64,000 bases of DNA from Dictyostelium discoideum (taxonomy: Eukaryota). Each line of letters starts with the position of its first letter. Position 1 is the stretch's first letter. Shown piece by piece: positions 15,742-55,046 of the stretch. The stretch covers positions 3,072,001-3,136,000 of the forward strand of contig CM000152.2 of assembly GCA_000004695.1 (NCBI GenBank). Reading direction: 5' to 3'. Made by a program: the position numbers and the translations under genes. A model generated the notes under the pieces. That model was not told the DNA's origin. It did no database searches and saw nothing but the letters and a program-made list of their open reading frames with translations.

Positions 15742-16055
15742 TTAGTTATCGCTATTATTAATATTTTGAGGAGTTCCATTGTTATTTGAAGTTGATGGTG
15801 AATTTGGAGAATTTGAGGGTTTTGGTGAAATGATTAAAGGGGCTGAACGTTGAGCACCTGACATACTAATGTTGCTTGGATTATTACCTCTATTTACAGA
15901 ATTTGGTGAGAGTGGATATTGTGGGTTTGGTGGATTAGAATTTGTTTGTACATCATCCATGTCATCAGAAATAATTACAGAACTTTGTTGATTGGTTGGG
16001 TTTGATGTATTCATATTATTATTATTATTACTATTATTATTATTATTATTATTTA

Positions 16056-16107
<52 letters not shown>

Positions 16108-19100
16108 TGATAAAATTGGTGAAGATGTTGAAGAATTAAAATTTGTTGGTTGATTGTTATTACTATTATTATTATTATTATTACTATTATTATTGTTATT
16201 ATTATTATAATCATTATTATTGTTATTAATATTATTATTAGATTCACTATCACTAGTTGATAAAGTTGTTGTTGTACTAGTAGTTGTAGTTGTAGTTGTT
16301 ATTGAGGTATTTTCAATAGTTTGAGATTGTTGTGGAGATTGTTGTTGTTGTGCTTGTTGAGCTTGTTGTTGTTGTTGTTGAAGTTGTTTTTGTCTTTCTA
16401 ATTGTTTATTACTTAAAGAATTTGTAATATTATTATTAATATTATTCATATTATTATTAATAAAGTTAATTGTATTTAAATTATTTTTCTTTCCTCTTTT
16501 ATTTGGATTACTGATGAAATTATTGATATTGAATTTTGGAATTGCAGTTTCTTGAGTTTCACTGAAATGACCATAGGAAATATTAGCAAGATGAATTTCC
16601 TCATCGGTATCTTCGATGAGTGCTTTAAGATGAGAATTAACACAACGTTGTAATGAATTTGTTTTTTCGATACCATAACCACCTTCCAATACAGAGATGA
16701 TTCTACCTTTACAATATTTGAAAGCGACAGTTTTAATCATTTTAGTAATGACGAAATAATCCTCTTCATTTAATTTCAAACCATTGGTTGGATCATCTTT
16801 ATGGCCATCGAAACCAGCTGAAAGGAAGATTAATTGTGGTTTGTAAGCTTCAAGTCTTGGAATGATTTTATTCATCCATTGTTGAAGGAAAACTGCGGAA
16901 CCTGTATTACGTTTCAAGCCAATATTTAAAATGTTACCATCGAATTGACCCGACACCTCATCGATATCACCAACATCTTGACCGGTACCAGGATAAAAGT
17001 AACGTTTTTCATCACATACATGAATTGAAATGAAGAGGAAATTGTCATCACCACTTAGGATCTCTTGAGTTCCATTACCATGATGAACATCGAAATCCAC
17101 CACAGCAATTCTACTATAACCGGCGGTCAATGAAGCATACTTGGCACCAATGGCAACGTTATTGATTAAACAATAGCCTTGAGATGGCGCATCACTTGTT
17201 CTACCATAACGACCAGCATGATGACCAGGTGGACGAATGGCACAAAAAGCACGAGTATAACCAGAACGACTAACTGAATCAACGGCGGCACAAACTGAAC
17301 CACTTGCTCTCAATGCGGCTTTAATGGAACGATGTGAAACAAAGGTATCGTAAATGTTATCATCATCACCCTCGAAATCTTTATGAGAGGCAACAGTAAC
17401 CATAGCACCACTTTTATCACTCTCCAAATGAGTTTCAAACTCTGAATTCTCTGGTGGTAAACTAGTTTCCAACTTTTTAATATAGTTTGCATCGTGGACG
17501 GCCATAACATAACGCATATCGACCTCTGGTGGATTGTCAAAGATATCAACCAATGGATTGCTTGCAAACTCGTTTATACAACTGACAGCGACTTGAATAC
17601 GATCAGGTTTCTCCAAATGAAAGTTTGGAACTTTATGTTGCATGCAAATCTTGTGATAGATTGCAATGGTTTTAAATTTATTCTTTATATCAACTGTGGT
17701 TGGAACGATTACAGGTTGACCATCCTCGCCCATTACTGTGGTTGTAGTGTTTGGAATTGCATTATCCAAAGCATTTGGTGGATGTGGTATTTGTGTCTCC
17801 AATTTATTTTGAAGTTGTGATAGTTTATTATTGATTAACTTTTCACATTCACCAACTCTTGATTCATAAAAGTAATCATGGATCCAATAGATTGATTCAA
17901 CCATTGTAATCAATAACTTGAGAGCGTAAATCTCATTCTCTAGGGTGGCTTGTTGAGATTTTGTCTCCTTTTCTTTGTCAGAGATACCATTTTTAATTAA
18001 TAACATATCGACTTTTAGCTCACTTGATTTCTTTTGAAGAGTATCACGAATTGATTCGTGAGCTGCAATTGCACCACGTACTTTACTTAATGAATCTAAT
18101 AGCTCTACCTCTTGATATTTAAATTTATGAATTTCATCCAAGTTTGCTTTGATTTGATGTTCAATTTGTTCAATCTCTGTGCTAACTTTATTACTTCTAA
18201 GACTTTCCTCCATGAGATTATCCTCGAGATCATGTTGATAATCGGCGATAGCACGTAAAGCAACTTCAATTGAATAGATTAAAGCATTTCTGGTTGAACA
18301 ACATTCTTTACCAATTAAACCTGCAGTTTCATGATTTTCAAATACCATTGTGATTGCTCTTTCCAATGGTACATTACGAGCGTTGGTTGTCATATTTTCA
18401 AGGGCACCCTCTTCCAATGATTTCAACTCTGAATACATCTCAACCACTGATTGTGATGATAATAAATTTCTCTTTATTAAATTTGATAATTCTTCAATCA
18501 TTCTCCAAACTAAACCATAATCTGATGCCCAACGTACAGTTTTTATTCTCATCATTAAATCAACAAAGTTATCAATACGTTCTTTAATTTCATCTGGTGG
18601 ATTTTGAGATAATGTTGAAAAGAATTTAACTGCTGTAAAAGTTTGATCAACGAAATTATCAATTGGATTCAATGGTTCTCTATTTGGTGATAAAACTGAT
18701 TCAATTAAATTATTAAAATTACCATTATTTTGTTGTTGATGTTGATGTTGTTGTTGTAATGCTTTCAATTGTTGAAGTTGAGCTTGTTGTTGTGATAAAC
18801 GAGCTTGTTGATGAGTTTGTTGTAATTGTTGTTGTTGTTGTACCATTAATGTATTTGGTGATGGTGGTGTTGCTGAATAACCCTGTTGTTCAACCACAAC
18901 CGTTGTATTTTTAATAATACCTCCACCAGCAGCACCACTACTACCAACCATCACTGAATTACCAATAATTGATGTTGGTGATGGTGGTGCACTATCTTCA
19001 TCATTTCTCTTTTTAGTATACTTTCTAGTTTCATAAATATCTGATGATGCATTAATTTTCTTTCTTAATCTTTTTTGATTTTGTTGATTATTTGGTGAAC

Positions 19101-21065
19101 CTGATGGATCAAATCCACTATTATTATTATTATTATTTGAATTATTATTATTATTATTATTTGAATTATTTGAATTAAATTGTGATGATCTTTTTTCATT
19201 TGGTGAAGTTTGTTGTTGTTGTTGTTGTTGTAAAAATTGAGCTTGAGCCATATCAAGTTCTGGACCTCTACGGAATTTTCTACTAATTGAGGTTAAACCT
19301 GGATTTAATTGTTCTTTAACCCAACGAGTTCTTTCTTTTTCTTTTGCTTTTGTACGTACGAATTGACAAACCCAACAAATCCATTTATTACCATTTGGAT
19401 GATTATTATGTTTCATGGCTGCAATTTCAACACAATCATTACAAAAACCAAATGCACAACCATTGTTACCACAATGATGTAAATCTTTTTTATCACCACA
19501 AATGCCACAAACTTTATCTTTTACTCCACTCGATTCATCATTAACGAAATCACCTCTTCTTAATGCTTCTGAAATTCTCACTTCACTCTTTATTGCATGA
19601 GTTTTACATGTTGGAATTAAACATGGTCTTAATATTTTTAATGATCTATCTGCTTTAACACATCCAACAAACCAACATGGTCTAATCTATAAATTTTTAA
19701 AATTAAAAAAAATAATAAAAATAATAAATAATTAGTAAAAATTATTTATTTTTTTTATTTTTTTCATTTTTTTTTTTTTTTTTAAAAACTTACATCTAAA
19801 TGATTTGGTACACTTTTTTTACTTGTTTTATATTTTGTTTTCTTTTTTGGTTGACCCATGTCTTCTTCTTCTTCTTCAAATTCTTCACCAAATTCTTCTT
19901 CACCCAAAGAATTATTTTGATTATTTTGATTATTTTGGTTATTTTGATTATTTTGATTAATTTGATTAATTTGATTATTTTGATTATTTGGATCTGATGT
20001 TGTTGTTGATGAACCTTGAGTAGCCTGAATATATTGTTGTAATTGAATTCTTTTTCTTTCTTCTGATCTTGATCCATTTGTCTTTGGTCTACCTCTAGCT
20101 GGCCTATTATTATTATTGTTATTATCATTATTACTATTATTATTATTATTATTATTATTAATATTATTATTATTATTATTGTTATTATTGTTTTGATTTA
20201 AATTTTGATTATTATTATTACTATTGTTAGTGGTGGTAGTTGTAGTAGTGGTATTATTGTTATTATTGTTATTATTATTTTGATTTTGATTTGATTGGTT
20301 TTCATCTTGTGGTTTATCATTTGTAGACATTATTGAATCATCATCTTCACCAACACCACCATCACTTTCTTCAGATAACATTAGATCTTTTTCTTCATCT
20401 GATGTTAATCTTGGTCTTTTATTGGTTTTTAATGCTGATTGAGTGTTTGGTGTATTATTTGTTGATGTTGAAATACGTTTTGGTACTTTTCCATCCGGTG
20501 TAAATATAGTTGGTGACTCTGGTGTAGTTTGTGATAAATGTGTATTTGTTGATTGTTGAACTTTTGATGGTCTCTGTAATTTTTTAAAAGTTTATAAAAA
20601 AAATAAAAAAAATAATAAAAATTAAGAAATTAGTATTTACACATTAGAATTATTATTTAAAAAAGATGTACTTACACCTCTTCTTTTACCACCAGCTGAA
20701 TTAGGATTTTGATTTTGTCTTCCATCAGCATCCTCATCATCATCTTCCATTTCATCTTCATCTTCTTCGGCACTATCAGATAATTCATGTTCTTCAAAGT
20801 TTATATCATCTTCTGATCCACTATCTTCAAGTGTAACTTGTTGTTCTTCTGTAACTTGTGAGTTGTTGTTGTTGTTGTTTTTATTATTATTATTATCACT
20901 ATTGTTATCGTTATCATTGGTGTTATTATTGTTGGTAGGTGAGGTTGTATTTTCGGTATTATTTTTGTTGTCATCATTATTATTATTATTATTATCGGTA
21001 TTGCTTTCGTTTGTTATGGTGGTTTTGGTGTCTTCATCACCTTCTATTATGTTATTGGTTGACAT
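15742..21065 (-). CDS. hdaC: Class II histone deacetylase, 1704 aa. Exons: 21065..20676, 20573..19794, 19686..15742.
   Basis: Catalytic-domain motifs RPPGHHAGRYG and VDFDVHHGNGTQEI are present. Exon 3 opens with a Cys/His zinc-finger cluster (CGICGDKKDLHHCGNNGCAFGFCNDCVE...WICWVCQF). Exon 1 ends ...GGKRRG before GTAAGT. Exon 2 is RPSKVQQ...PNHLD. Exon 3 starts after ATAG with IRPCWFVGCV.... The total is 5115 nt, which is 1704 aa, the length I recall for D. discoideum hdaC. The ORF-track start is a GTG. Confidence 0.9.
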
Positions 21066-27614: not shown

Positions 27615-28367
27615 TTAAAATGGTAAATTTCCAAGAACTTTTGGTAATTGGATTGGTGATGATTTTAATTTTAATTGTTTTGAATTTGGTTGATTTAAAC
27701 AAATACTTGGTAATTGAAAGTATGAAGAATCGGCTGATGGGCTGTAGTAGTAATAGTTTGTTAATGTATATCCACTTGGTGTATTGTTGATATTTTCAGT
27801 TGAGCCAGAGATTAAAGAACAATCTGATTTATCTACAAGGAGGCCAACATTTGAAGAGTTACCTAAATCACCTGGGTTTACAGAAAACATGTCACATTGG
27901 ACAGTACCGATTTCGAAATCACCAACATACTTTAAACCATCAAGTGGTGGAACAGAGTATGATAATGGTTGTTGGAAACAATAGTCAGTGTCATTTACAT
28001 TAACACTAACGTATTGAGTGCTATTACTACCGAAACCCCAGAGACTACCTTTTGTTTTAGTATTACCATTATCGAATAAAAAGTCAACATACAATTGTTC
28101 ACCAACCAAATCGATATTAATAAAACCAGATTCAAGGAAAGATGATTGTTGAATACCACTGGGAGTTGGATAATTTCCATTGAAACTTAACATAACATAT
28201 GAACTTGCATAACTAGATGGGAGTTGGTTACTTGAAGTAAAACATTGTTGTTGGCCTACTTGATTTTCAATTTTTGAGTAATCAATTTTATTTGTACCCA
28301 TACTAAATGACTTACAACAATTTAATGCAATTGTCATTACTAAAATTAATGATAATAATAATTTCAT
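27615..28367 (-). CDS. Secreted hypothetical protein, 250 aa, with a signal peptide and rich in Cys, Ser, Asn and Tyr.
   Basis: A single ORF with an N-terminal signal peptide (MKLLLSLILVMTIALNCC) and several N-glycosylation sequons. I recognise no homologue. Confidence 0.55.
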   Translation of the reverse strand: MKLLLSLILVMTIALNCCKSFSMGTNKIDYSKIENQVGQQQCFTSSNQLPSSYASSYVMLSFNGNYPTPSGIQQSSFLESGFINIDLVGEQLYVDFLFDNGNTKTKGSLWGFGSNSTQYVSVNVNDTDYCFQQPLSYSVPPLDGLKYVGDFEIGTVQCDMFSVNPGDLGNSSNVGLLVDKSDCSLISGSTENINNTPSGYTLTNYYYYSPSADSSYFQLPSICLNQPNSKQLKLKSSPIQLPKVLGNLPF

Positions 28368-29330
28368 ATTTTTATTTTTTTTTTTATTTTTTTTTATTTT
28401 TTTATTTATTTGTTTTATTTATTTTTAATTTTTAATTGAATAAAAAAAAAAAAAAAAATTATTATTTATACTATTTTTTTTTTTTTAGGTTTCCGACTAC
28501 ATTTTTAAAAATGAATTCAACCAATTTAATTATCCTGGATAATACATTTTTTTGCCTGGTTATGAACTTGCAAAAATTTGTTTATTTTGAATCTTCACAT
28601 TTATTTTGAAAAAATCCGATTCCATTTTTCCGAAAATTAAAATAAAAAATGTAAGGTATTTTTTTTTTATTATTAAAGGTATATTTTGGTAAAAAAGTTT
28701 ATAAAAGAATGTTAAAGAACCTATCTCAAAAAAATAATTTTTTTATTTGGATATTTTTTAAAAATAATATCTCAAAATAATTTTTTTAAAAAAAAAAACC
28801 CCAGGCCATTACATCATAATATCAACGAAAGATTTTTGACCTGGCAATAAATTTATTTTATTGTTTCTTTTTTTTAATAATAAAAAAAAAAAAAAAAAAA
28901 AAAAAAATGGAATTTTAAATGACTAATACTTTTTTTTAGTGACTTATTTGTAATTTGAGTTTTTTTAATAAGAAAAAAAAAAAAAAAAAAAAATTTATTT
29001 AAATGAAAATACTGAAAAAAAAATAAATAACAATAAAATAAAAGAAAGAAAGAAAAAACCAAAGATAAAAATTCTTTTTTTATTTAAACTAATATTAGAC
29101 TAAAAAAAAAAAAATATTGGGATTGGGAAAAAGATTTGTTTTTTTATTATATTTTTATTTTTTTTCTTTTTTTAAAATTTTTTTTTTTATAACCAGAATG
29201 CACAAAGAATTCTTGAACAATAAAATGATTATTTATAAAGATTCAATATTATTTTTATTTTTTTATTAATTTTAAAAAAAAAACAGAACAAAACAAAAAA
29301 AAACAAATATATTAACTAATATTAAATAAA

Positions 29331-30263
29331 ATGTCAAGTGTTTCAAGAAAAGTGGCAAACGTTGCCAAAGGTTATAAAACCAAAGATGGTGCAGGTGTAT
29401 CTCTTTTACGAGTTATAGGTGGACCTATCCATTCTTAATGTTGGATGCATTTAAATCAGAGAATCCAAATGATTATATTGCAGGTTTCCCATCACATCCT
29501 CATAGAGGTCAACAAACTTTAACCTATATGATTGATGGTATAATGGCACAAAGATAACAAAGGAAATAAAGGATTATTAAAACCTGGTATGGTTCAAGTT
29601 ATGAATGCTGCAAGAGGGTATGTTTTTAAATTATTATTAAAAAATAAAACAAAATACTGATAATAATTTAAAATTAAAAATATATAGCATTATTCACTCA
29701 GAAATGCCAAAACAAGTTGAAGGTAAAATGTTTGGATTTCAATTTTGGTTAAATTTAGCAGCAGTAGATAAAATGTCAGATCCATGGTATAAAGATCTTG
29801 AAAGCTAAAGAGATTCCAGAAGTTATTACAAATGATAAAAAAGTTAGAGTTGTAGCAGGTCATTATGAAGGTGTTGAAGGTATAGTTAAAGGTTTACCAG
29901 TTAATCCAATATTTTTAGATGTTAAATTATCACCAAACACTAAATTCTCTGTTGATATACCAGATTTGGATCATAATTCATTCGTTTATGTTTTTGAAGG
30001 TGAAGGTAAATTTGGTCCAGAAGGTTATGAAACAGTTGTTGGTGATCTACAAATTGGTGTTTTAGAGAATAAAGATAGTTACAATTAAAGATAATGAAAT
30101 TACTCCAAATAAATTAGATGCTGGTGAAAATGGTGTTAGATTCCTCTTTTTATCAGCAAAACCATTAAGTGAACCAATCGCCCAACATGGTCCATTCGTT
30201 ATGAATACACAAAAAGAAATTCAACAAGCTTTCTTTGATTACCAAATGGGTAGATTTAATTAA
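29331..30263 (+). pseudogene. Pirin-like (cupin) pseudogene, disabled by at least four frameshifts and premature stops, but retaining one intact 69-nt GTATGT..AG intron at 29618..29686.
   Basis: Conceptual translation across three frames recovers pirin motifs: PFLMLDAFKSENPNDYIAGFPSHPHRGQQTLTYMIDG, DNKGNKGLLKPGMVQVMNAARG-intron-IIHSEMP, PWYKDL-KAKEIPEVITNDKKVRVVAGHYEG, and C-terminal GPFVMNTQKEIQQAFFDYQMGRF. Frame breaks lie near 29425, 29550, 29800 and 30075. Each shift is a 1-2 nt indel relative to the expected reading. Confidence 0.75.
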
Positions 30264-30841
30264 AATCAATATTAAAAAAAAATAATAATAAAAAGATTAA
30301 AAAAAAAATTGTACTATAATTAATGTAAAGTGGTTATTAAATTATTAACCAAGCACCAATTAAACAGAAATTATGCTGTTGAATTAGAAAATTAAAAAAA
30401 AAATATATATAAATAAATAAAATCTTCTAAATTAAACTTATGATTGATATATTATTGTAGATATAATAAATTTTTTTTTTTTTTTATTTTTTTTTTGTTT
30501 GTTATATTACAAATCCATATCCATATCTGGTGTAATGTCAATGCTATTATGTTTTTTTTATATGAAAAATGTCTAAGAGGTCATAGTCTATGGCTTTGTA
30601 TTTTCAATGAAATCCCAAACCAATGTAGTCTATGTTAACTTCATGGTCTTTTTTCTTATTGGAAGGTATGATTGGTATGAATTTGTTTATTGATTTTAAT
30701 TCTTTTGTGTGACCAATTCGTGTTTCCGCATGTTTATTTGATGATGGGCCCTTAAAATTTGGAAGTATTAACATAGGATTTGGTTTGGAACAATGTTCCA
30801 AAAAATAAAATAAATTTCCAAATCAAACCTTGATTATCAAT

Positions 30842-30852
30842 GACATCGAACC
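30842..30852 (-). promoter_or_regulatory. External B box (exB), GGTTCGATGTC, about 31 nt downstream of the tRNA-Arg 3' end.
   Basis: Dictyostelium tRNA genes commonly carry an extra B-box copy (consensus GGTTCGAATCC) a few tens of bp downstream. Here GGTTCGA matches exactly. Confidence 0.5.
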
Positions 30853-30883
30853 AGCGATCTTATTGTACAAGATATTAAAATTT

Positions 30884-30956
30884 CACCCATTGTGGGTCTC
30901 GATCCCACGACCTGCAGCTTAGAAGGCTGCCGCAATTCCAACTTTGCTAAACGGGC
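30884..30956 (-). tRNA. tRNA-Arg, anticodon UCU, 73 nt, no intron and no encoded CCA.
   Basis: The minus-strand cloverleaf is GCCCGTT-TA-GCAA-AGTTGGAA-TTGC-G-GCAGC-CTTCTAA-GCTGC-AGGTC-GTGGG-ATCGAGA-CCCAC-AATGGGT-G. The A box (TAGCAAAGTTGG) is good and the anticodon loop is canonical (U33, TCT, A37). Two features are atypical. The acceptor stem has two G·U pairs (1-72 and 5-68). The T-loop is ATCGAGA (A54, A60) rather than TTCGAAT. Confidence 0.7.
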
Positions 30957-31536
30957 TTTGTTGGAAAGTTATTTTTAATGCATCAAAAAATTAGGGTATT
31001 TTCCAATTAAAAAAAAAGTATTTTAATTAAAAAAGTGAACTATCAATTATTCAACCTATGGGAGGAGATCCGTTTAAAAGGTATTGATAATACTGGCAGT
31101 GGCTTGGACGCTATCAGGTTTTAAACGAAAAGCTTGAACCTTAATTTTGTCACAAACACTACAAGAGATTGCCATATATTTCTCAAATCAAATGGATAGA
31201 AGTTTACAGAAGTTTTCAATCCTCACCAATTTCAGTGGCTTTTGAATTTGGTAAATTTTTATTAATATTTGGATTTTTAAAAAAAAAAACGAAATTATCC
31301 AGATTTTAAAATTAAAAAAAAACAATAAAAAAATAAAGAAAAAAGGTAATAACTATTTAATTTAAATTTTTTGTTTTTTGTTCCCATTCGAATTCTTAAG
31401 TAAAGAAATTTCTTATTAATATTATTTAAAAAAAAAAAGTTAACTGAAAACAAGTTGGAGAATATTGTCAAAATCGAGTTTGCAGAGGTGTTGGTGAAAA
31501 CTTTCATTCAAGAACATTTTGTTCAAATTATTAAAT

Positions 31537-31619
31537 ATTCATTCATTCATTCATTCATTCATTCATTCATTCATTCATTCATTCATTCATTCATTCATTC
31601 ATTCATTCATTCATTCATT
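31537..31619. repeat. (ATTC)~21 tetranucleotide microsatellite.
   Basis: Read directly. It lies at the distal end of the GC-moderate, non-genic block upstream of the tRNA. Confidence 0.95.
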
Positions 31620-31911
31620 ATCTATTGATAACTAGATCTGATAAAAAAAAATCTTAATAAAATAATAGTTTTGATTAAAAACCTTTTTTATTTTATTTTT
31701 TTTTTTCTACATTGGACACTTAAATAAATTCGTATTTTTATTTTATTTTATATATAAAAATTAATTAATTTTGTAATAAAAAGAATTATTTAGTTTGAAG
31801 ATAATTTTTTTTTTTTTTTTTTTTTTTACCAAAATTTAATAAATAAACTAACTTTTTGTTTTTTTTTTTTTTTAAAAATTTTTTAATAAAGATTTTTTTT
31901 TTTTTTTTTTT

Positions 31912-33144
31912 TTATTGTTGAGCACAAGAAACACCTTGTGGATGACCACCATGTTGATCTTCATCATCGTCATCGTAAGCAGAGGATCTACTATGTGAAT
32001 GTTGTTTAGTATCGAAATCATGTAAAACGGCCTCTTCATCGATGCCATCGTGGGAAACTGGTTTTTGAACTGGTTTTGGTTTTGGAAGTATTTTCTCCAA
32101 GAGCTTAGCGTTTTCGGGTGTGATTTGACCAGAGGTTGGGAAAACGACATTGAATTTGATAAAGAGTCTACCCTTTTCAAAAGGTCTCTTGTAACCTGGC
32201 ATACCTTCGTTATAAATACATTTGATATCACCTTGTTTGATGATTTGAGTTGGTGGATTCTTTACGGTGATGACACGACCATCCAAATGGGTGATGTAAA
32301 AGGTGAAACCTGTCAAAGCCTCTAAAAGGGTCAACTCATGCTCCATGACGAGATCGTCGCCATCACGTTGGAATACTGGATGCTCCTTTTGAACGAGTAC
32401 AACGATGACGTCACCTGGTACGATATCAGGTGATTCGTAATCACCTTCCTCTGGGAAAACGATCTTTTGACCGTGTTTCATACCCTTGTCAATGTTTACT
32501 TCGAGTGTTTTCTTCTCTTGAATGGTTTTGTTACCTTTACATTTTGGACATCTATCTTTCTCACGGATAACATTGCCCTCACCTTTGCAAGATGGACATT
32601 GTGATTGTAACTTTTGGACCATACCTGGACCGATTTGTCTATGAATAACCTTGAAACCTTGACCATGACAATCGTCACATTTCTTTACACCATCCTTGCT
32701 TGTTGAACCTTTACCTGCGCAATCTGGACATTTGCTACTCTTTTGTAAGGCGAGTTTTTGAACTTTACCCTTGTATAAATCCTCGAGTGTAACTTTAAGA
32801 TTATGTTGGAGTGGTTCTCCTTTTCTTGGTCCACGTCTACCACCACGTCCTCCAAATCCTCCAAATCCACCACCACCAAAGAATTGTGAAAAGATATCAT
32901 CTGGTGAAAATCCTGCTCCACCTTCTTTCAAACCTTCTTCACCATATTTATCATAAAGTTCTCTCTTTTCAGTATCAGATAAAACTTCATATGCAACTGT
33001 AAGTTCTTTAAACTAAATTTTAAAAATAAAAAAAATTAGTAAAATAATAAATAAATATAAATATAATAATAAATATAATATTATTATTATATATATAATG
33101 TGTTGTGGGAATAAATTTGAATTTGAAATTTCAAATTCTAAACT

Positions 33145-52644: not shown

Positions 52645-55046
52645 TTAAAGTTCGTCATGGGTTGATTGTGGTGGTTGTTGGAAATCTTGTTGTTGATTTT
52701 CATCATCATCACCAAATGAAACTGATGGACCAGAATTTTCATTTTTAGTGGTTTCGAAATTAGTTTGAGCTAAACTATCACCATTAATCATCATTAATTT
52801 GTAAATGAAATCGGCAAAGTTTGTTGGATTATCAATGGAATAACCAGCGGTAAGAGCAGAAGTTTCATATAAAACATGAGCGCTAACTTTGGTAGTTTCA
52901 TCTTCTTCACCAAATTCATTCAATCTATTCAAGAGTTTTTTAATGAGTGGATGGGAAGGATTAATTTCCATGATTTTCTTTGAATTGAATTGTGGTTGAG
53001 CGTTTGCTTGATGAGCTTGAGCTTTCATGATACGTTCTTGATTGGCAGTGACACCCCAAGAATTTGAGACTAAAATACTTGGTGAATCAGCTAAAACCTT
53101 TGAAATGACGACTTTTTCCAATTTATCAGAGAGAGTCTTTTTGAGGTAAGAAAGGAGTGGTTTGAATTCTTCGGCGGTTTGTTTACGTTGATCCTCTTCC
53201 TCTTTGTCTTCATTGAATTTAACACCACTACGTGCAAGATTAGTGAATTTGTATTTATCGTCAAATTTATCCAATTGTGGTACTAAATACTCATCGATTG
53301 GATCGACTAAGAATAAAACTTCATAACCTTTTTTAATGGCTTGTTCAATGAGTGGTGAAGCTTCTACGGAATCCTTTGATTTACCAGTGATAAAGTAAAT
53401 TTGATCTTGACCCTCTTTCATACGTTCTACATAACCAGCAAAAGTGGTTAACTCTTCCTTACTTGATGGGAATAAGAGGTATTTAGTTAAACGTTTTTTA
53501 TTGGCTTGATCTTCGATGGCACCTAATTTCATTGAAGAACCGAATTTCTTAAAGAATTCATTGTATTTGGTTTTATCTTCATCTTCAGATAACTCTTTAA
53601 TCATTGAAATGAATTTACCAATGACCTTCTTTTTAATGGCATCTAAAATCTTATTTTGTTGTAACATTTCACGAGAAACATTCAATGGTAAATCATCGGA
53701 ATCAATAACACCAACTAAAAATCTTAACCAATTTGGAACCAATTCCTTAAGGTTATCAGTGATGAAAACACGACGTACAAATAATTTAAGACCACTACCG
53801 GCAGCTTCTAAATCAAACATATTTGATGGTGGATTCTCTGGAATGTAAAGAATTGAACGGAATTCAGTATCACCTTCAGTCTTAAAATGTGAATAAGTGA
53901 TTGGTGTATCTTGAGTTTTACTTAATGATCTAAAGAATTCAGTGTATTCTTCTTTGGTAACATCTTTTGCTGCTTTCATCCATAATGGTTTTGAATCATT
54001 TAATTCTTCCCATTTATAAACGGTTTTAGTTTTCTTTTCTTCAGTTTGTCCTTCTTCTTCGGTTGTAGTCTCTTCTTCACCTTCTTCTGTGGTGGTGGTA
54101 GTTTCTTCAACTTGATCATCGGTGATTGGTTTTGAATCTTCTTGTTCTTCTTTTGGAATTTCAACTTCTTCAGAAACGTATAAATAAATTGGGAAATTAA
54201 TGAATTGTGAGTACTTCTTTACGAGTTGTTTAATAACTTCTTGATCTAAGAATTCTTTAGAGTCATCTTTAATGTGAAGACTAATACGAGTACCTCTACC
54301 AAGTGTATTACCTTTTGGATCTTTGGCAATGGTGTATGATGATTGTGAATCTGATGTCCAAACGTATTGATCATCATCATTACTCTTTGAGGTTACAACA
54401 ACAGAATCGGCAACTAAAAATAATGAATAGAAACCAACACCAAATTGACCAATTAAATTGGATGATTCTGCTGAATCACTAACTTTCTTTATGAATTCTT
54501 TAGTTCCTGATTGGGCAATAGTACCTAAATTTCTAACTAATTCATCTTTAGTCATACCAACACCTCTATCAGTAATATGGAGAACATTATTAGCTTTATC
54601 AATTTTAATATGAATATCTAAGTTTGATTGTTCACCTTCACCTAATAAATCTGCATTTGTTAATGCTAAAAATCTAATTTTATCTAATGCCTTTTTTTAG
54701 AAAAAAAAAAAAAATAAATAAATAAAAATAATTAATAATCTTTTTTTTTTTTTTTTTTTTTTTTGTTTAAAAAAAAATTAAAACTTACATCTGATGCATT
54801 TGAAATTAATTCTCTTAAAAAGATTTCTTTTTTAGAATATAAGGAATTAATGATAATATTCATTAATTTATTGACTTCAGTTTGGAAAGTGAATTTTTCA
54901 CCCTTTTCTTCAATTAATTTTGCTTCAGCTTCTGTGTATCCATCACTTTCAAGGTTAACAGTGGCAACACTTGAACTTGGAGCGAATGCAACTAAAAGGA
55001 ATGCAAATAAACCAAGAATTAAAAATATTTTTGTAATACTTTTCAT
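52645..55046 (-). CDS. grp94: GRP94/endoplasmin (ER-resident Hsp90 paralogue), 767 aa, with a C-terminal HDEL. Exons: 55046..54789, 54690..52645.
   Basis: There is a signal peptide ([22 protein letters not shown]). The Hsp90 signature is split by the intron: ...[15 protein letters not shown], then GTAAGT..AG, then [24 protein letters not shown] ATPase motifs ([10 protein letters not shown]), charged linkers and the terminal HDEL are present. Confidence 0.92.

Follow-up and report, generated by a model that had tools for sequence, protein, structure and literature searches.

A conserved tRNA-Arg(UCU) gene of Dictyostelium discoideum, flanked by debris that probably derives largely from host-gene copies

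The locus

The window analysed here is a stretch of 64 kb of Dictyostelium discoideum DNA, from chromosome 3 of AX4. Genes in the window match exactly DDB_G0280201, DDB_G0280211, and Ddj1 of D. discoideum AX4. According to ARAGORN it holds a single tRNA gene, with the anticodon TCT. The gene lies on the minus strand, so that positions from 30957 upwards are upstream of it and positions below 30884 are downstream. Promoter elements, three blocks of GC-moderate DNA, and a microsatellite lie in and around the gene (Table 1).

Several protein-coding genes are found in the neighbourhood. Transcripts of ddj1 end about 50 nt past its stop codon. The pirin gene adjoining the tRNA carries four frameshifting indels in AX4 relative to the intact 295-aa gene of wild strains, and in AX4 it is evidently a pseudogene. 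In this lineage alone, the tRNA is separated from a Pyridoxal_deC gene by the pirin gene and an ependymin-like gene. The window also contains an intact histone-deacetylase ORF, in which the Pfam family Hist_deacetyl covers aa 655-987 (E 1.6e-73).

Table 1. Features of the tRNA-Arg(UCU) locus, with positions in the window.
Feature	Position	Strand	Basis or remark
tRNA-Arg(UCU) gene, 73 nt	30884..30956	(-)	ARAGORN and Rfam RF00005
A box TAGCAAAGTTGG, tRNA positions 8-19	30938..30949	(-)	from sequence; invariant in 9/9 genomes
Internal B box GGATCGAGACC, tRNA positions 52-62	30895..30905	(-)	A for T at 54, A for pyrimidine at 60
RNA polymerase III terminator, T4 run 4-7 nt past tRNA 3' end	30877..30880	(-)	sequence
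External B box GGTTCGATGTC	30842..30852	(-)	+32..+42, 31 nt after tRNA 3' end
AT-rich spacer directly upstream of tRNA	30957..31034	(-)	conserved within D. discoideum group
Block D, downstream, GC-moderate	30500..30835		no coding signal; D. discoideum proper only
Block X, decayed partial copy of class-II histone-deacetylase gene	31084..31257	(-)	about aa 608-684 of parent
Parent segment of block X	17530..17756	(-)	inside intact histone-deacetylase ORF 15742-19581
GC-moderate block beside microsatellite	31425..31536		conserved within D. discoideum group
(ATTC)20.8 microsatellite	31537..31619	(+)	Tandem Repeats Finder, 100% matches

The tRNA gene and its promoter elements

The Rfam tRNA family RF00005 matches the gene over model positions 1-71 of 71 with a covariance score of 59.2 bits, about twice the gathering score of 29 bits. 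Standard pairs are formed at all 21 pairs of the cloverleaf. The acceptor stem includes two G·U pairs, G1·U72 and G5·U68, and the anticodon stem is GCAGC/GCUGC. The T-arm reads GUGGG-AUCGAGA-CCCAC, with A at positions 54 and 60.

The consensus of Dictyostelium B boxes is GTTCRAnYC (PMC3159450). Compared with it, the internal B box GATCGAGAC has exactly two mismatches, at positions 54 and 60, and G53, U55, C56, A58, and C61 are intact. In D. discoideum, 66% of tRNA genes have an external B box, at a distance of about 41 bp downstream (PMC3159450). The one found here, GGTTCGATGTC, contains the only GGTTCGA in the 64-kb window, where 1.28 occurrences are expected. Its last three positions deviate from the nYC of the consensus.

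By elimination from Table S2 of PMC5391098, the tRNA at 30884-30956 is probably ArgUCU-8 of dictyBase, on chromosome 3. That table lists at least 11 ArgUCU genes and gives 26 de novo TRE5-A insertions upstream of ArgUCU-8. If ArgUCU-8 is the tRNA gene described here, the insertions imply that it is occupied by TFIIIB and TFIIIC in vivo. A published primer named 'ArgUCU' does not match this tRNA.

Conservation across Dictyostelium genomes

Nine genomes were compared, AX4 and eight others, and the tRNA is syntenic beside ddj1 in all eight. It is identical at 73 of 73 positions in AX4 and six others. These seven genomes represent four named taxa: D. discoideum, D. cf. discoideum, D. firmibasis, and D. 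dimigraforme. Across the same seven the flanks cannot be aligned, and between 595 and 2840 bp separate ddj1 from the tRNA.

In D. citrinum (two genomes) six sites of the tRNA differ, five by substitutions in stems and one in the T-loop. The stem pairs change from UA to GU, from G·U to G-C, and from UA to GC, and G59 of the T-loop changes to A. Pairing is nevertheless retained at all 21 pairs. A shuffle statistic for the preservation of pairing (133/500) is weak, there being just two distinct tRNA sequences. None of the nine genomes, D. citrinum included, departs from A54 and A60, which are evidently fixed features of this tRNA, not signs of decay.

To judge from these comparisons, the tRNA is under strong purifying selection and is probably an active gene of RNA polymerase III. 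It is extremely improbable that it is a decaying or non-functional copy that has survived since its external B box still recruits TFIIIC. Features that could be read in this way, and that led the earlier note to raise the question, are the departure of the internal B box from consensus at two positions and the two G·U pairs in the acceptor stem. Decay is contradicted by a covariance score of twice the threshold, by perfect preservation in seven genomes despite unalignable flanks, and by D. citrinum substitutions that all keep pairing in the stems.

The elements around the gene are conserved to different extents. A run of four or five T follows the tRNA at an unchanged place in all nine genomes. 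The external B box sequence CTGGTTCGATG is found at constant spacing in seven genomes (D. discoideum, D. cf. discoideum, and D. citrinum), where it is invariant while the 31-nt spacer between it and the tRNA varies. In D. firmibasis, GGTTCGAATC is located further downstream of the tRNA. On the other side of the gene, the spacer at 30957..31034 is where TFIIIB would bind and transcription would start. The sequence from 31034 to 30842 aligns to L035, a D. cf. discoideum locus, at 82%, and that from 30991 to 30842 aligns to L010 and L011, two loci of other D. discoideum strains, at 91-93%.

The earlier note had described a tRNA-Arg(UCU) with A54, A60, and two acceptor G·U pairs, a weakened internal B box, and a good external B box 31 nt downstream. 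ARAGORN, Rfam, and the sequence itself find the tRNA as claimed. The mismatches at 54 and 60 bear out the weakening, and the GGTTCGA core with its conserved spacing bears out the external B box.

A mechanism can be proposed that connects these features. The conserved external B box may act as a second site for TFIIIC, one with a consensus core. The tRNA may in turn require a T-loop with A54·A58 and purine 60, as in eukaryotic initiator tRNA and tRNA-Ala(AGC), and such a requirement would mean the loss of two consensus positions in the internal B box. On one of two further readings of this locus, the milder one, the conserved external B box would let an arginine tRNA keep an initiator-type A54/A60 loop that damages its internal promoter.

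The flanking blocks

Three blocks in the flanks, at 30500-30835, 31035-31260, and 31425-31536, have a GC content of 27-39%, compared with 4-17% in the surrounding spacer. None of the three contains an ORF of more than 70 aa. Moderate GC content and a lack of ORFs on both sides of the tRNA had been reported in the earlier note and are indeed seen, as is the (ATTC)21 tract, which is present as a perfect (ATTC)20.8. Repeats of ATTC occur at the equivalent place in L010, L011, and L035 in differing numbers. The tract was rejected as the end of an element, being a length-polymorphic microsatellite common to other strains.

Downstream of the tRNA, block D begins about 50-90 bp past the gene; its far end, read on the strand of the tRNA, is an A-rich run. 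The part from 30612 to 30794 is 75.7% identical to L010, and just about 47 nt of the block match in L011. Block D has no protein match (E<=10), belongs to no Rfam family, and has no match elsewhere in the window. Upstream, the block at 31425-31536 shows 91-92% identity in L010 and L011. It is partly present in D. cf. discoideum, at L035, where it is truncated, and at L037. Searches for a protein, Rfam, or in-window match to it gave nothing.

Block D and the blocks X, Y, and Z are all absent from six other genomes, and strains differ from one another by clean deletions of flank blocks. No parents for block D, block Z, or 31425-31536 were found within the window.

The flank blocks were translated in six frames and compared with 5.8 billion proteins, with no match at E<=10. 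This search needs shared 5-residue words and missed a homology to the deacetylase, and its database may lack TRE proteins. Exact look-up of the flank ORFs as called genes found none on record. Within the intergenic region, the tRNA is the only Rfam match at E<=1.

A relic of a histone-deacetylase gene

The homology to the deacetylase was found by comparison at the DNA level, by way of a less decayed strain. Block X aligns locally to 17573-17758 with a score of 37; shuffled sequences score 19.6±2.5, and 0/500 reach 37. An nhmmer profile built from the AX4 and L010 copies of block X matches the window at 17756-17530 with an E-value of 3.6e-21. The L010 copy is 79% identical to the deacetylase gene at the nucleotide level (E 5e-10), and tblastn also detects it (E 1.5e-6).

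The sense strand of block X runs in the direction of the tRNA, and stop codons interrupt every frame. The AX4 and L010 copies are 72.5% identical, which is close to the divergence of the neighbouring spacer. Block X is cleanly missing from L011, with TA microhomology at the junction. No further pieces of the deacetylase were found around the tRNA. By all these comparisons, block X can be recognised as a relic: about 175-225 bp of non-coding DNA whose source is the histone-deacetylase gene 13 kb away on the same strand.

A second relic can be found in other strains. L010 and L011 contain block Y, a fragment of a gene homologous to CYY_002687 of P. violaceum (database E 2.9e-9). It lies beside the block X site, and its parent gene is unrelated to the deacetylase. 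An intron in block Y was considered and rejected, as tblastn gives one continuous frame. Around the tRNA no further pieces of the CYY_002687 homologue were found. In P. violaceum the homologue of the block Y parent is located in an unrelated gene neighbourhood.

The GC-moderate flanks appear not to be part of the tRNA gene. They have the character of young, fast-eroding debris, specific to D. discoideum proper. The blocks at 30500-30835 and 31425-31536 are presumably leftovers of the same decaying kind, produced by local duplication and rearrangement around the tRNA.

Origin of the flanks

The most probable reading of the locus is an active, conserved tRNA gene with flanks that are debris, largely of host-gene copies, and that form no part of the gene. 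Other origins for the flanks can be considered, among them retroelements that target tRNA genes. TRE5 inserts in the orientation opposite to the tRNA and TRE3 in the same orientation. Skipper-2 inserts 8-23 bp downstream of tRNA genes, and DGLT-A inserts 13-33 bp upstream.

It is unlikely that the flanks are 5'-truncated remnants of such elements (TRE5 or DGLT-A upstream, TRE3 or Skipper-2 downstream), consisting mostly of untranslated-region sequence. A TRE adjoins 61% of D. discoideum tRNA genes (PMC5006619), and the blocks start at roughly the distances of TRE5 (40-54 bp upstream) and TRE3 (40-150 bp downstream). Relative to the empty site of L011, block X of L010 lies 57 bp upstream of the tRNA. 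The blocks are also lineage-specific and polymorphic, and distal A-runs occur on the expected strand, as an A11 at 31279-31289 and a T-run at 30470-30497. However, the impression in the earlier note that the flanks look like retroelement remnants is not supported for the main upstream block: block X shows homology to a deacetylase gene of the host, and the strand on which it reads sense is not the one expected of an insert in TRE5 orientation. The A11 and the adjacent 45 nt are common to L011, which is without block X. The A11 is therefore not the tail of block X and was rejected as a poly(A) tail. The sole repeat resembling a target-site duplication (family D13; 30998-31017 and 31303-31322) is an A-rich 20-mer, rejected since the motif recurs elsewhere in the spacer. 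Further points against retroelement remnants are the lack of any similarity to proteins in six frames and the failure to find any of the blocks a second time, either in the window or in eight 13-kb loci.

A solo LTR of DGLT-A at the usual distance upstream of the tRNA does not fit either. About 35 bp there are collinear at 91-93% in wild D. discoideum, and the alignment to L035 extends over about 78 bp at 82%; nothing foreign interrupts the interval. A query made of the DGLT-A RNase H and integrase, approximate because rebuilt by OCR, matched only Ty3/gypsy proteins from animals and metagenomes, at <=50% identity, and none from Dictyostelium. A 10-nt match to the primer Rep-190 at about 31061-31070 was judged to be chance. 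A query pieced together from peptides that TRE5-A ORF1 primers encode would, by simulation, reach E-values of just 1e2-1e4. One of these peptides, DGEDVQ, matches the actin N-terminus MDGEDVQ as well, so its primer may lie in sequence derived from the actin6 promoter and not in ORF1.

Alternatively, blocks X and Y may have been picked up at the tRNA gene when a TRE5-type reverse transcriptase switched templates, or when breaks there were repaired with filler DNA, rather than being left over from a larger local duplication. This is possible, though on balance it seems doubtful. Two short internal fragments of unrelated genes are neighbours at the distance where TRE5 inserts, the parent of block Y has its homologue in an unrelated neighbourhood in P. 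violaceum, and TRE5-A integrates experimentally upstream of ArgUCU-8 (PMC5391098). On the other hand, block X lacks a poly(A) tail and any clear target-site duplication, and parsimony over AX4, L010, and L011 favours ancestral presence followed by deletions. Its parent is just 13 kb away on the same strand, which fits local DNA duplication, and the rest of the neighbourhood is also rearranged, as the lineage-specific pirin and ependymin-like genes show. A bolder generalisation is that Dictyostelium Pol III genes capture host sequence, the deacetylase and CYY_002687-homologue fragments having been pasted about 57 bp upstream of the tRNA through template switching or break repair. Taken with its alternative, the milder reading on the external B box, this proposal is quite unlikely to hold.

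Finally, the GC-moderate blocks could have a function without coding for protein, as small RNA genes or as regulatory DNA for ddj1, pirin, or the tRNA. The block at 31425-31536 is indeed 91-92% identical between AX4 and wild strains, above the 81-84% found from the 3' end of ddj1 to 31276, and the 35 bp immediately upstream of the tRNA are well conserved. A function of this sort is still very unlikely. The divergence of blocks X and D is like that of spacer, and some strains have lost them wholly by deletion; 31425-31536 is truncated in L035, ddj1 transcripts end about 50 nt past the stop codon, and Rfam at E<=1 contributes nothing besides the tRNA.

Comparison with known systems

The locus is ordinary, with one small curiosity: an arginine tRNA that carries a T-loop of the initiator and tRNA-Ala type.

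TRE5 and TRE3 remnants. The flanks resemble these in being lineage-specific, strain-polymorphic, non-coding blocks near a tRNA gene, at about 50 bp on its upstream side and 50-100 bp on its downstream side. They differ in having no coding remains like APE, RT, or ORF1, and the upstream block comes from a host deacetylase gene. A poly(A) tail, a target-site duplication, and a second copy cannot be demonstrated here.

Partial pseudogenes from local duplication and deletion. Block X likewise copies a short internal stretch of an intact gene nearby and is full of stop codons. It evolves at a neutral rate, is lost by deletions, and adjoins a frameshifted pirin pseudogene. In contrast to other such pseudogenes, just about 200 bp of it survive, and its position at the TRE5 target distance may or may not be coincidence. 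GC-moderate, ORF-less DNA beside a Dictyostelium tRNA gene need not be retroelement debris. Since the upstream block is at least partly a decayed host-gene copy, it would be an error to annotate repeats here from their position alone.

tRNA genes with an external B box. Hofmann et al. reportedly described D. discoideum nuclear tRNA genes of this type in 1991. The work of Siol et al. on the external B box is summarised in PMC3159450. Like those genes, the one described here has internal A and B boxes, an oligo-T terminator, and a GGTTCGA on the same strand tens of bp downstream, and if it is ArgUCU-8 it is targeted by TRE5-A integration. It differs in having A54 and A60 where the consensus has GTTCRAnYC, and in that no TRE, or just unrecognisable remains of one, adjoins it. 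The gene offers a natural setting in which to ask whether an external B box frees the sequence of a tRNA from constraints set by its promoter.

Initiator tRNA-Met and tRNA-Ala(AGC). The combination of A54·A58, purine 60, and U17 has been described in tRNA-Ala(AGC) (PMC7566577) and in initiator tRNA (PMC3950347). The arginine tRNA shares with them A54 facing A58, the purine at 60, U17 in the D-loop, and A20, and its T-loop AUCGAGA (AUCGAAA in D. citrinum) equals that of initiators exactly or nearly so. Such loops also occur in other arginine tRNAs: in a scan of metagenomes, A54 turned up in 13 tRNA-Arg(UCU) genes, and two of these had the identical loop AUCGAGA. The modified base T54 (m5U) is normally made on U54, which the T-loop of this tRNA does not have. 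An identity as initiator tRNA was rejected, given the anticodon UCU in place of CAU, G1·U72 in place of A1:U72, and an anticodon stem without three consecutive G:C pairs at 29-31:39-41; of the features tested, just A54, A60, and A20 are in common. An ordinary G15-C48, in place of R15/A48, is a further difference, and the tRNA is neither an initiator nor a tRNA-Ala. An elongator tRNA-Arg(UCU) has here kept, unchanged across a species group, an A54·A58/A60 loop that is otherwise known from initiator tRNA and tRNA-Ala(AGC).

The tRNA gene and its signals

Exact copies of the proteins DDB_G0280201, DDB_G0280211 and Ddj1 of D. discoideum AX4 are encoded in the window, which is therefore AX4 chromosome 3. 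Its GC content is 22.9%. The tRNA gene is on the minus strand, so positions above 30956 are upstream of it and positions below 30884 are downstream. The Rfam tRNA model aligns to it over its full length. The covariance score against this model is 59.2 bits, compared with a gathering score of 29. GGTTCGA occurs once in the window, in the external B box.

Everything that the earlier note described as observed is confirmed in every particular, including the external box 31 nt downstream. External B boxes are a known Dictyostelium feature, found about 41 bp downstream in 66% of tRNA genes (PMC3159450). Judged from its sequence and conservation, the tRNA-Arg(UCU) gene, already annotated in AX4, is most probably functional.

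Features of the tRNA locus in the window and in related loci (L010 and L011, wild D. discoideum; L034 and L036, D. citrinum; L035, D. cf. discoideum strain ACTFIY; L018 and L022, metagenome contigs)
Feature	Source	Position	Strand	Detail
tRNA-Arg, anticodon TCT	window	30884-30956	-	sole tRNA in 64 kb (ARAGORN)
T-arm of tRNA-Arg	window			GUGGG-AUCGAGA-CCCAC; positions 54 and 60 are A
Acceptor stem of tRNA-Arg	window			G1·U72 and G5·U68
A box of tRNA-Arg	window			TAGCAAAGTTGG
TTTT run	window	4-7 nt past tRNA-Arg 3' end
External B box	window	31 nt downstream of tRNA	-	GGTTCGATGTC
Block D, downstream	window	30500-30835
Block X, upstream	window	31084-31257	-
Third block, upstream	window	31425-31536
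(ATTC)20.8	window	31537-31619		perfect repeat
Deacetylase ORF	window	15742-19581		Pfam histone-deacetylase domain, E 1.6e-73
DDB_G0280201	window	27615-28367	-	Pfam Ependymin_amoebozoa
Pirin-family gene	window	29331-30262	+	left of tRNA; pseudogene in AX4
Ddj1 ORF	window	31912-32931	-
HSP90 ORF	window	52645-54555	-
Block Y	L010	7986-8280		just upstream of tRNA; one or two stop codons
Block Y	L011	8019-8299		just upstream of tRNA; one or two stop codons
tRNA-Arg	L034	9009-9081
tRNA-Arg	L036	8616-8688
tRNA-Ser(AGA)	L035	9716-9797		normal GGTTCGAACCC T-loop; 1.6 kb downstream of tRNA-Arg
tRNA-Arg(TCT), T-loop AUCGAGA	L018	84-156		low-GC contig
tRNA-Arg(TCT), T-loop AUCGAGA	L022	192-266		low-GC contig

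Conservation of the tRNA

The same locus was taken from eight other genomes by means of the neighbouring gene Ddj1: two wild D. discoideum isolates, two D. cf. discoideum, two D. citrinum, D. firmibasis and D. dimigraforme. In all eight, a tRNA-Arg(TCT) gene lies downstream of ddj1 in the same orientation, at a distance that ranges from 595 to 2840 bp. Six of the eight genes match that of AX4 at all 73 nt. In the more distant species, the DNA on either side of the tRNA cannot be aligned to AX4 at all.

Six positions, five of them in stems, set the two D. citrinum genes apart from the shared sequence. U6-A67 becomes G·U and U50-A64 becomes G-C, both doubly compensated, and G5·U68 becomes G-C; the sixth change, in the T-loop, replaces G59 with A. 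Each of the 21 pairs remains a standard one, and A54, A60, A20 and G1·U72 are unchanged in every genome compared. A shuffle control on the pairing (133/500) is weak, with only two distinct sequences. Nevertheless, the substitutions look like those of a working tRNA and unlike those of a decaying copy, and the suggestion of decay does not survive the identity of the gene in seven genomes and the intact pairing in D. citrinum.

The core of the external B box, CTGGTTCGATG, is invariant in seven D. discoideum, D. cf. discoideum and D. citrinum genomes, and the 31-nt spacer before it varies in the same seven. D. firmibasis has GGTTCGAATC farther downstream of the tRNA. The tRNA-Ser(AGA) gene of L035 is not at the corresponding place in AX4.

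Origin of the flanking blocks

The intergenic region 30263-31915 contains blocks of 27-39% GC, compared with 4-17% in normal spacer, and these blocks hold no ORF longer than 70 aa. Both this composition and the (ATTC)n tract had been reported earlier. Among the genomes compared, the blocks are common to D. discoideum proper only, and three strains differ in them. The tract keeps its position in L010, L011 and L035; its repeat number differs, and it is interrupted in some strains.

The proposal that the flanks are remnants of tRNA-targeted retroelements is worth taking seriously from geometry. TRE5 inserts 40-54 bp upstream of tRNA genes in the opposite orientation, TRE3 inserts 40-150 bp downstream in the same orientation (PMC5911963), and a TRE adjoins 61% of tRNA genes (PMC5006619). 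However, when translated in six frames, the three GC-moderate blocks match no protein at E<=10, and none of the flank ORFs is recorded as a called gene.

For block X, the main upstream block, the alignments point to a host gene. The block measures 186 bp in L010, where it is 72.5% identical to AX4 (E 3e-17), about the divergence of the neighbouring spacer. The L010 copy shares 79% of its nucleotides with window 17573-17643 (E 5e-10), and its translation ...KKPDRIQVTASCINKL... matches EKPDRIQVAVSCINEF in the deacetylase ORF (tblastn E 1.5e-6). The AX4 copy is collinear with 17573-17758 at an alignment score of 37, compared with 19.6±2.5 for dinucleotide shuffles, 0/500 of which reach 37. A profile from both copies matches 17756-17530 (E 3.6e-21). 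Block X is thus a partial, decayed copy of the deacetylase gene, which lies on the same strand at a distance of 13 kb; it covers about residues 608-684. On this sequence evidence a retroelement origin of block X is refuted; for the remaining blocks it is unsupported after the protein-level search.

Block X is missing from L011, where the empty site, ...GATGTA|CTTTTTTGG..., lies 57 bp upstream of the tRNA. When the three strains are compared, parsimony favours a relic that is older and was larger before deletions cut it back. Less probably, this internal 200-bp piece of the deacetylase gene was captured at the tRNA gene, from which it lies at the distance typical of TRE5 insertions.

L010 and L011 also share block Y, about 290 bp that AX4 does not have. 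It is a fragment of a homologue of P. violaceum CYY_002687 (residues 76-161; 55% identical, E 2.9e-9 in the whole database), a gene with ordinary cellular genes around it. The protein search with block Y returned no other protein, and so no D. discoideum homologue. Host-gene fragments located at a retroelement target site are of specialist interest.

Over 183 nt, block D shares 75.7% identity with L010; L011 lacks most of it. Its similarity is equal in all reading frames, and no match was found elsewhere in the window or in Rfam. Because it lies at a TRE3-type position and has an A-rich run at its end, read on the tRNA strand, a retroelement untranslated region is a candidate origin. The third block is 91-92% conserved within D. 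discoideum and partly present in D. cf. discoideum.

The wider neighbourhood

Relative to the intact 295-aa pirin gene called in two wild D. discoideum genomes, the AX4 gene has a 19-bp, two 2-bp and a 6-bp deletion and a 1-bp insertion; in D. cf. discoideum the alignment is confined to roughly the last 300 bp of the gene. Gene order was compared between L009, L012, L034 and L036 (D. firmibasis, D. dimigraforme and D. citrinum) and the window, L010, L011 and L037 (D. cf. discoideum). In the former group the Pyridoxal_deC gene comes next after the tRNA. The pirin and ependymin-like genes between the two occur in the D. discoideum lineage only, and partly in D. cf. discoideum. Taken together with the variation in (ATTC)n, the pirin indels and differences in gene order indicate a site of recent rearrangement, with gene pieces eroding through small deletions.

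DDB_G0280201 is one of 31 proteins that cluster at >=90% identity; many members are same-chromosome paralogues, which indicates a recent local gene-family expansion. L010 and L011 come from assemblies that bear the name D. discoideum (GCA_054859385 and GCA_054859355). Compared with window 29200-32000, they share only about 90% identity with AX4 in the pirin gene; from the ddj1 3' end through the spacer downstream of it (32000-31276) the figure is 81-84%. Within a single species this divergence is large. Logan contigs of 1.2-2.3 kb (runs SRR26869257/58/66 and SRR28564540-42) contain exact matches to the HSP90 and Ddj1 ORFs and look like transcript assemblies; those with ddj1 stop about 50 nt past the stop codon.

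Published insertion data

Three ArgUCU genes are listed for chromosome 3 (ArgUCU-7, -8 and -9; Table S2 of PMC5391098), and of these ArgUCU-8 (5126146-5126218) alone is free of neighbouring tRNA genes within 50 kb. Since the window holds one tRNA, ArgUCU-8 fits, and the two may be the same gene, identified by elimination only. A primer-independent library maps 26 de novo TRE5-A insertions to ArgUCU-8 (PMC5391098), which may bear on the in vivo state of the window tRNA. Primer-based libraries gave almost no reads from ArgUCU genes (PMC5391098). The 'ArgUCU' family primer CCTATTGATTCTGAAGTCAATCGC (Table S1 of PMC5391098) is mismatched to the anticodon arm of the window tRNA and, as printed, gives an 8-nt anticodon loop. 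This reflects either a second ArgUCU isodecoder family or a misprinted primer.

The T-loop and known tRNAs

The internal B box, GTCgtggGATCGAGAC, departs from the Dictyostelium consensus GTCnnnnGTTCRAnYC (PMC3159450) at exactly positions 54 and 60, which bears out the earlier description of a weakened box. Conservation shows that the T-loop is under selection as a property of the RNA, and comparison with the consensus shows that it weakens the internal promoter. The conserved external box could then give TFIIIC a consensus core.

In JGI metagenome contigs, a scan for an anticodon loop of the Arg(UCU) type with GGATCGA after it gave 21 matches. ARAGORN called tRNA-Arg(TCT) in 13 of them; two have the AUCGAGA loop, which thus recurs in Arg(UCU) tRNAs elsewhere. 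An archaeal-looking Arg(TCT) gene group (GGGCCCGTAGCTCAG...) likewise has A54.

The unusual T-loop is a selected trait of a known kind. Together with a conserved external B box, a T-loop of the initiator or tRNA-Ala type in an Arg tRNA is of interest to specialists. Eukaryotic initiator tRNA has as its signature A54 paired with A58 and a purine at 60 (PMC3950347); this combination is also documented in elongator tRNA-Ala(AGC), there with U17 (PMC7566577). The tRNA-Arg carries U17, A20, A54, A58 and A60, and the D. citrinum loop, AUCGAAA, is identical to the eukaryotic initiator loop. At 15-48 the tRNA-Arg has an ordinary G15-C48 pair, and it shows none of the other initiator marks.
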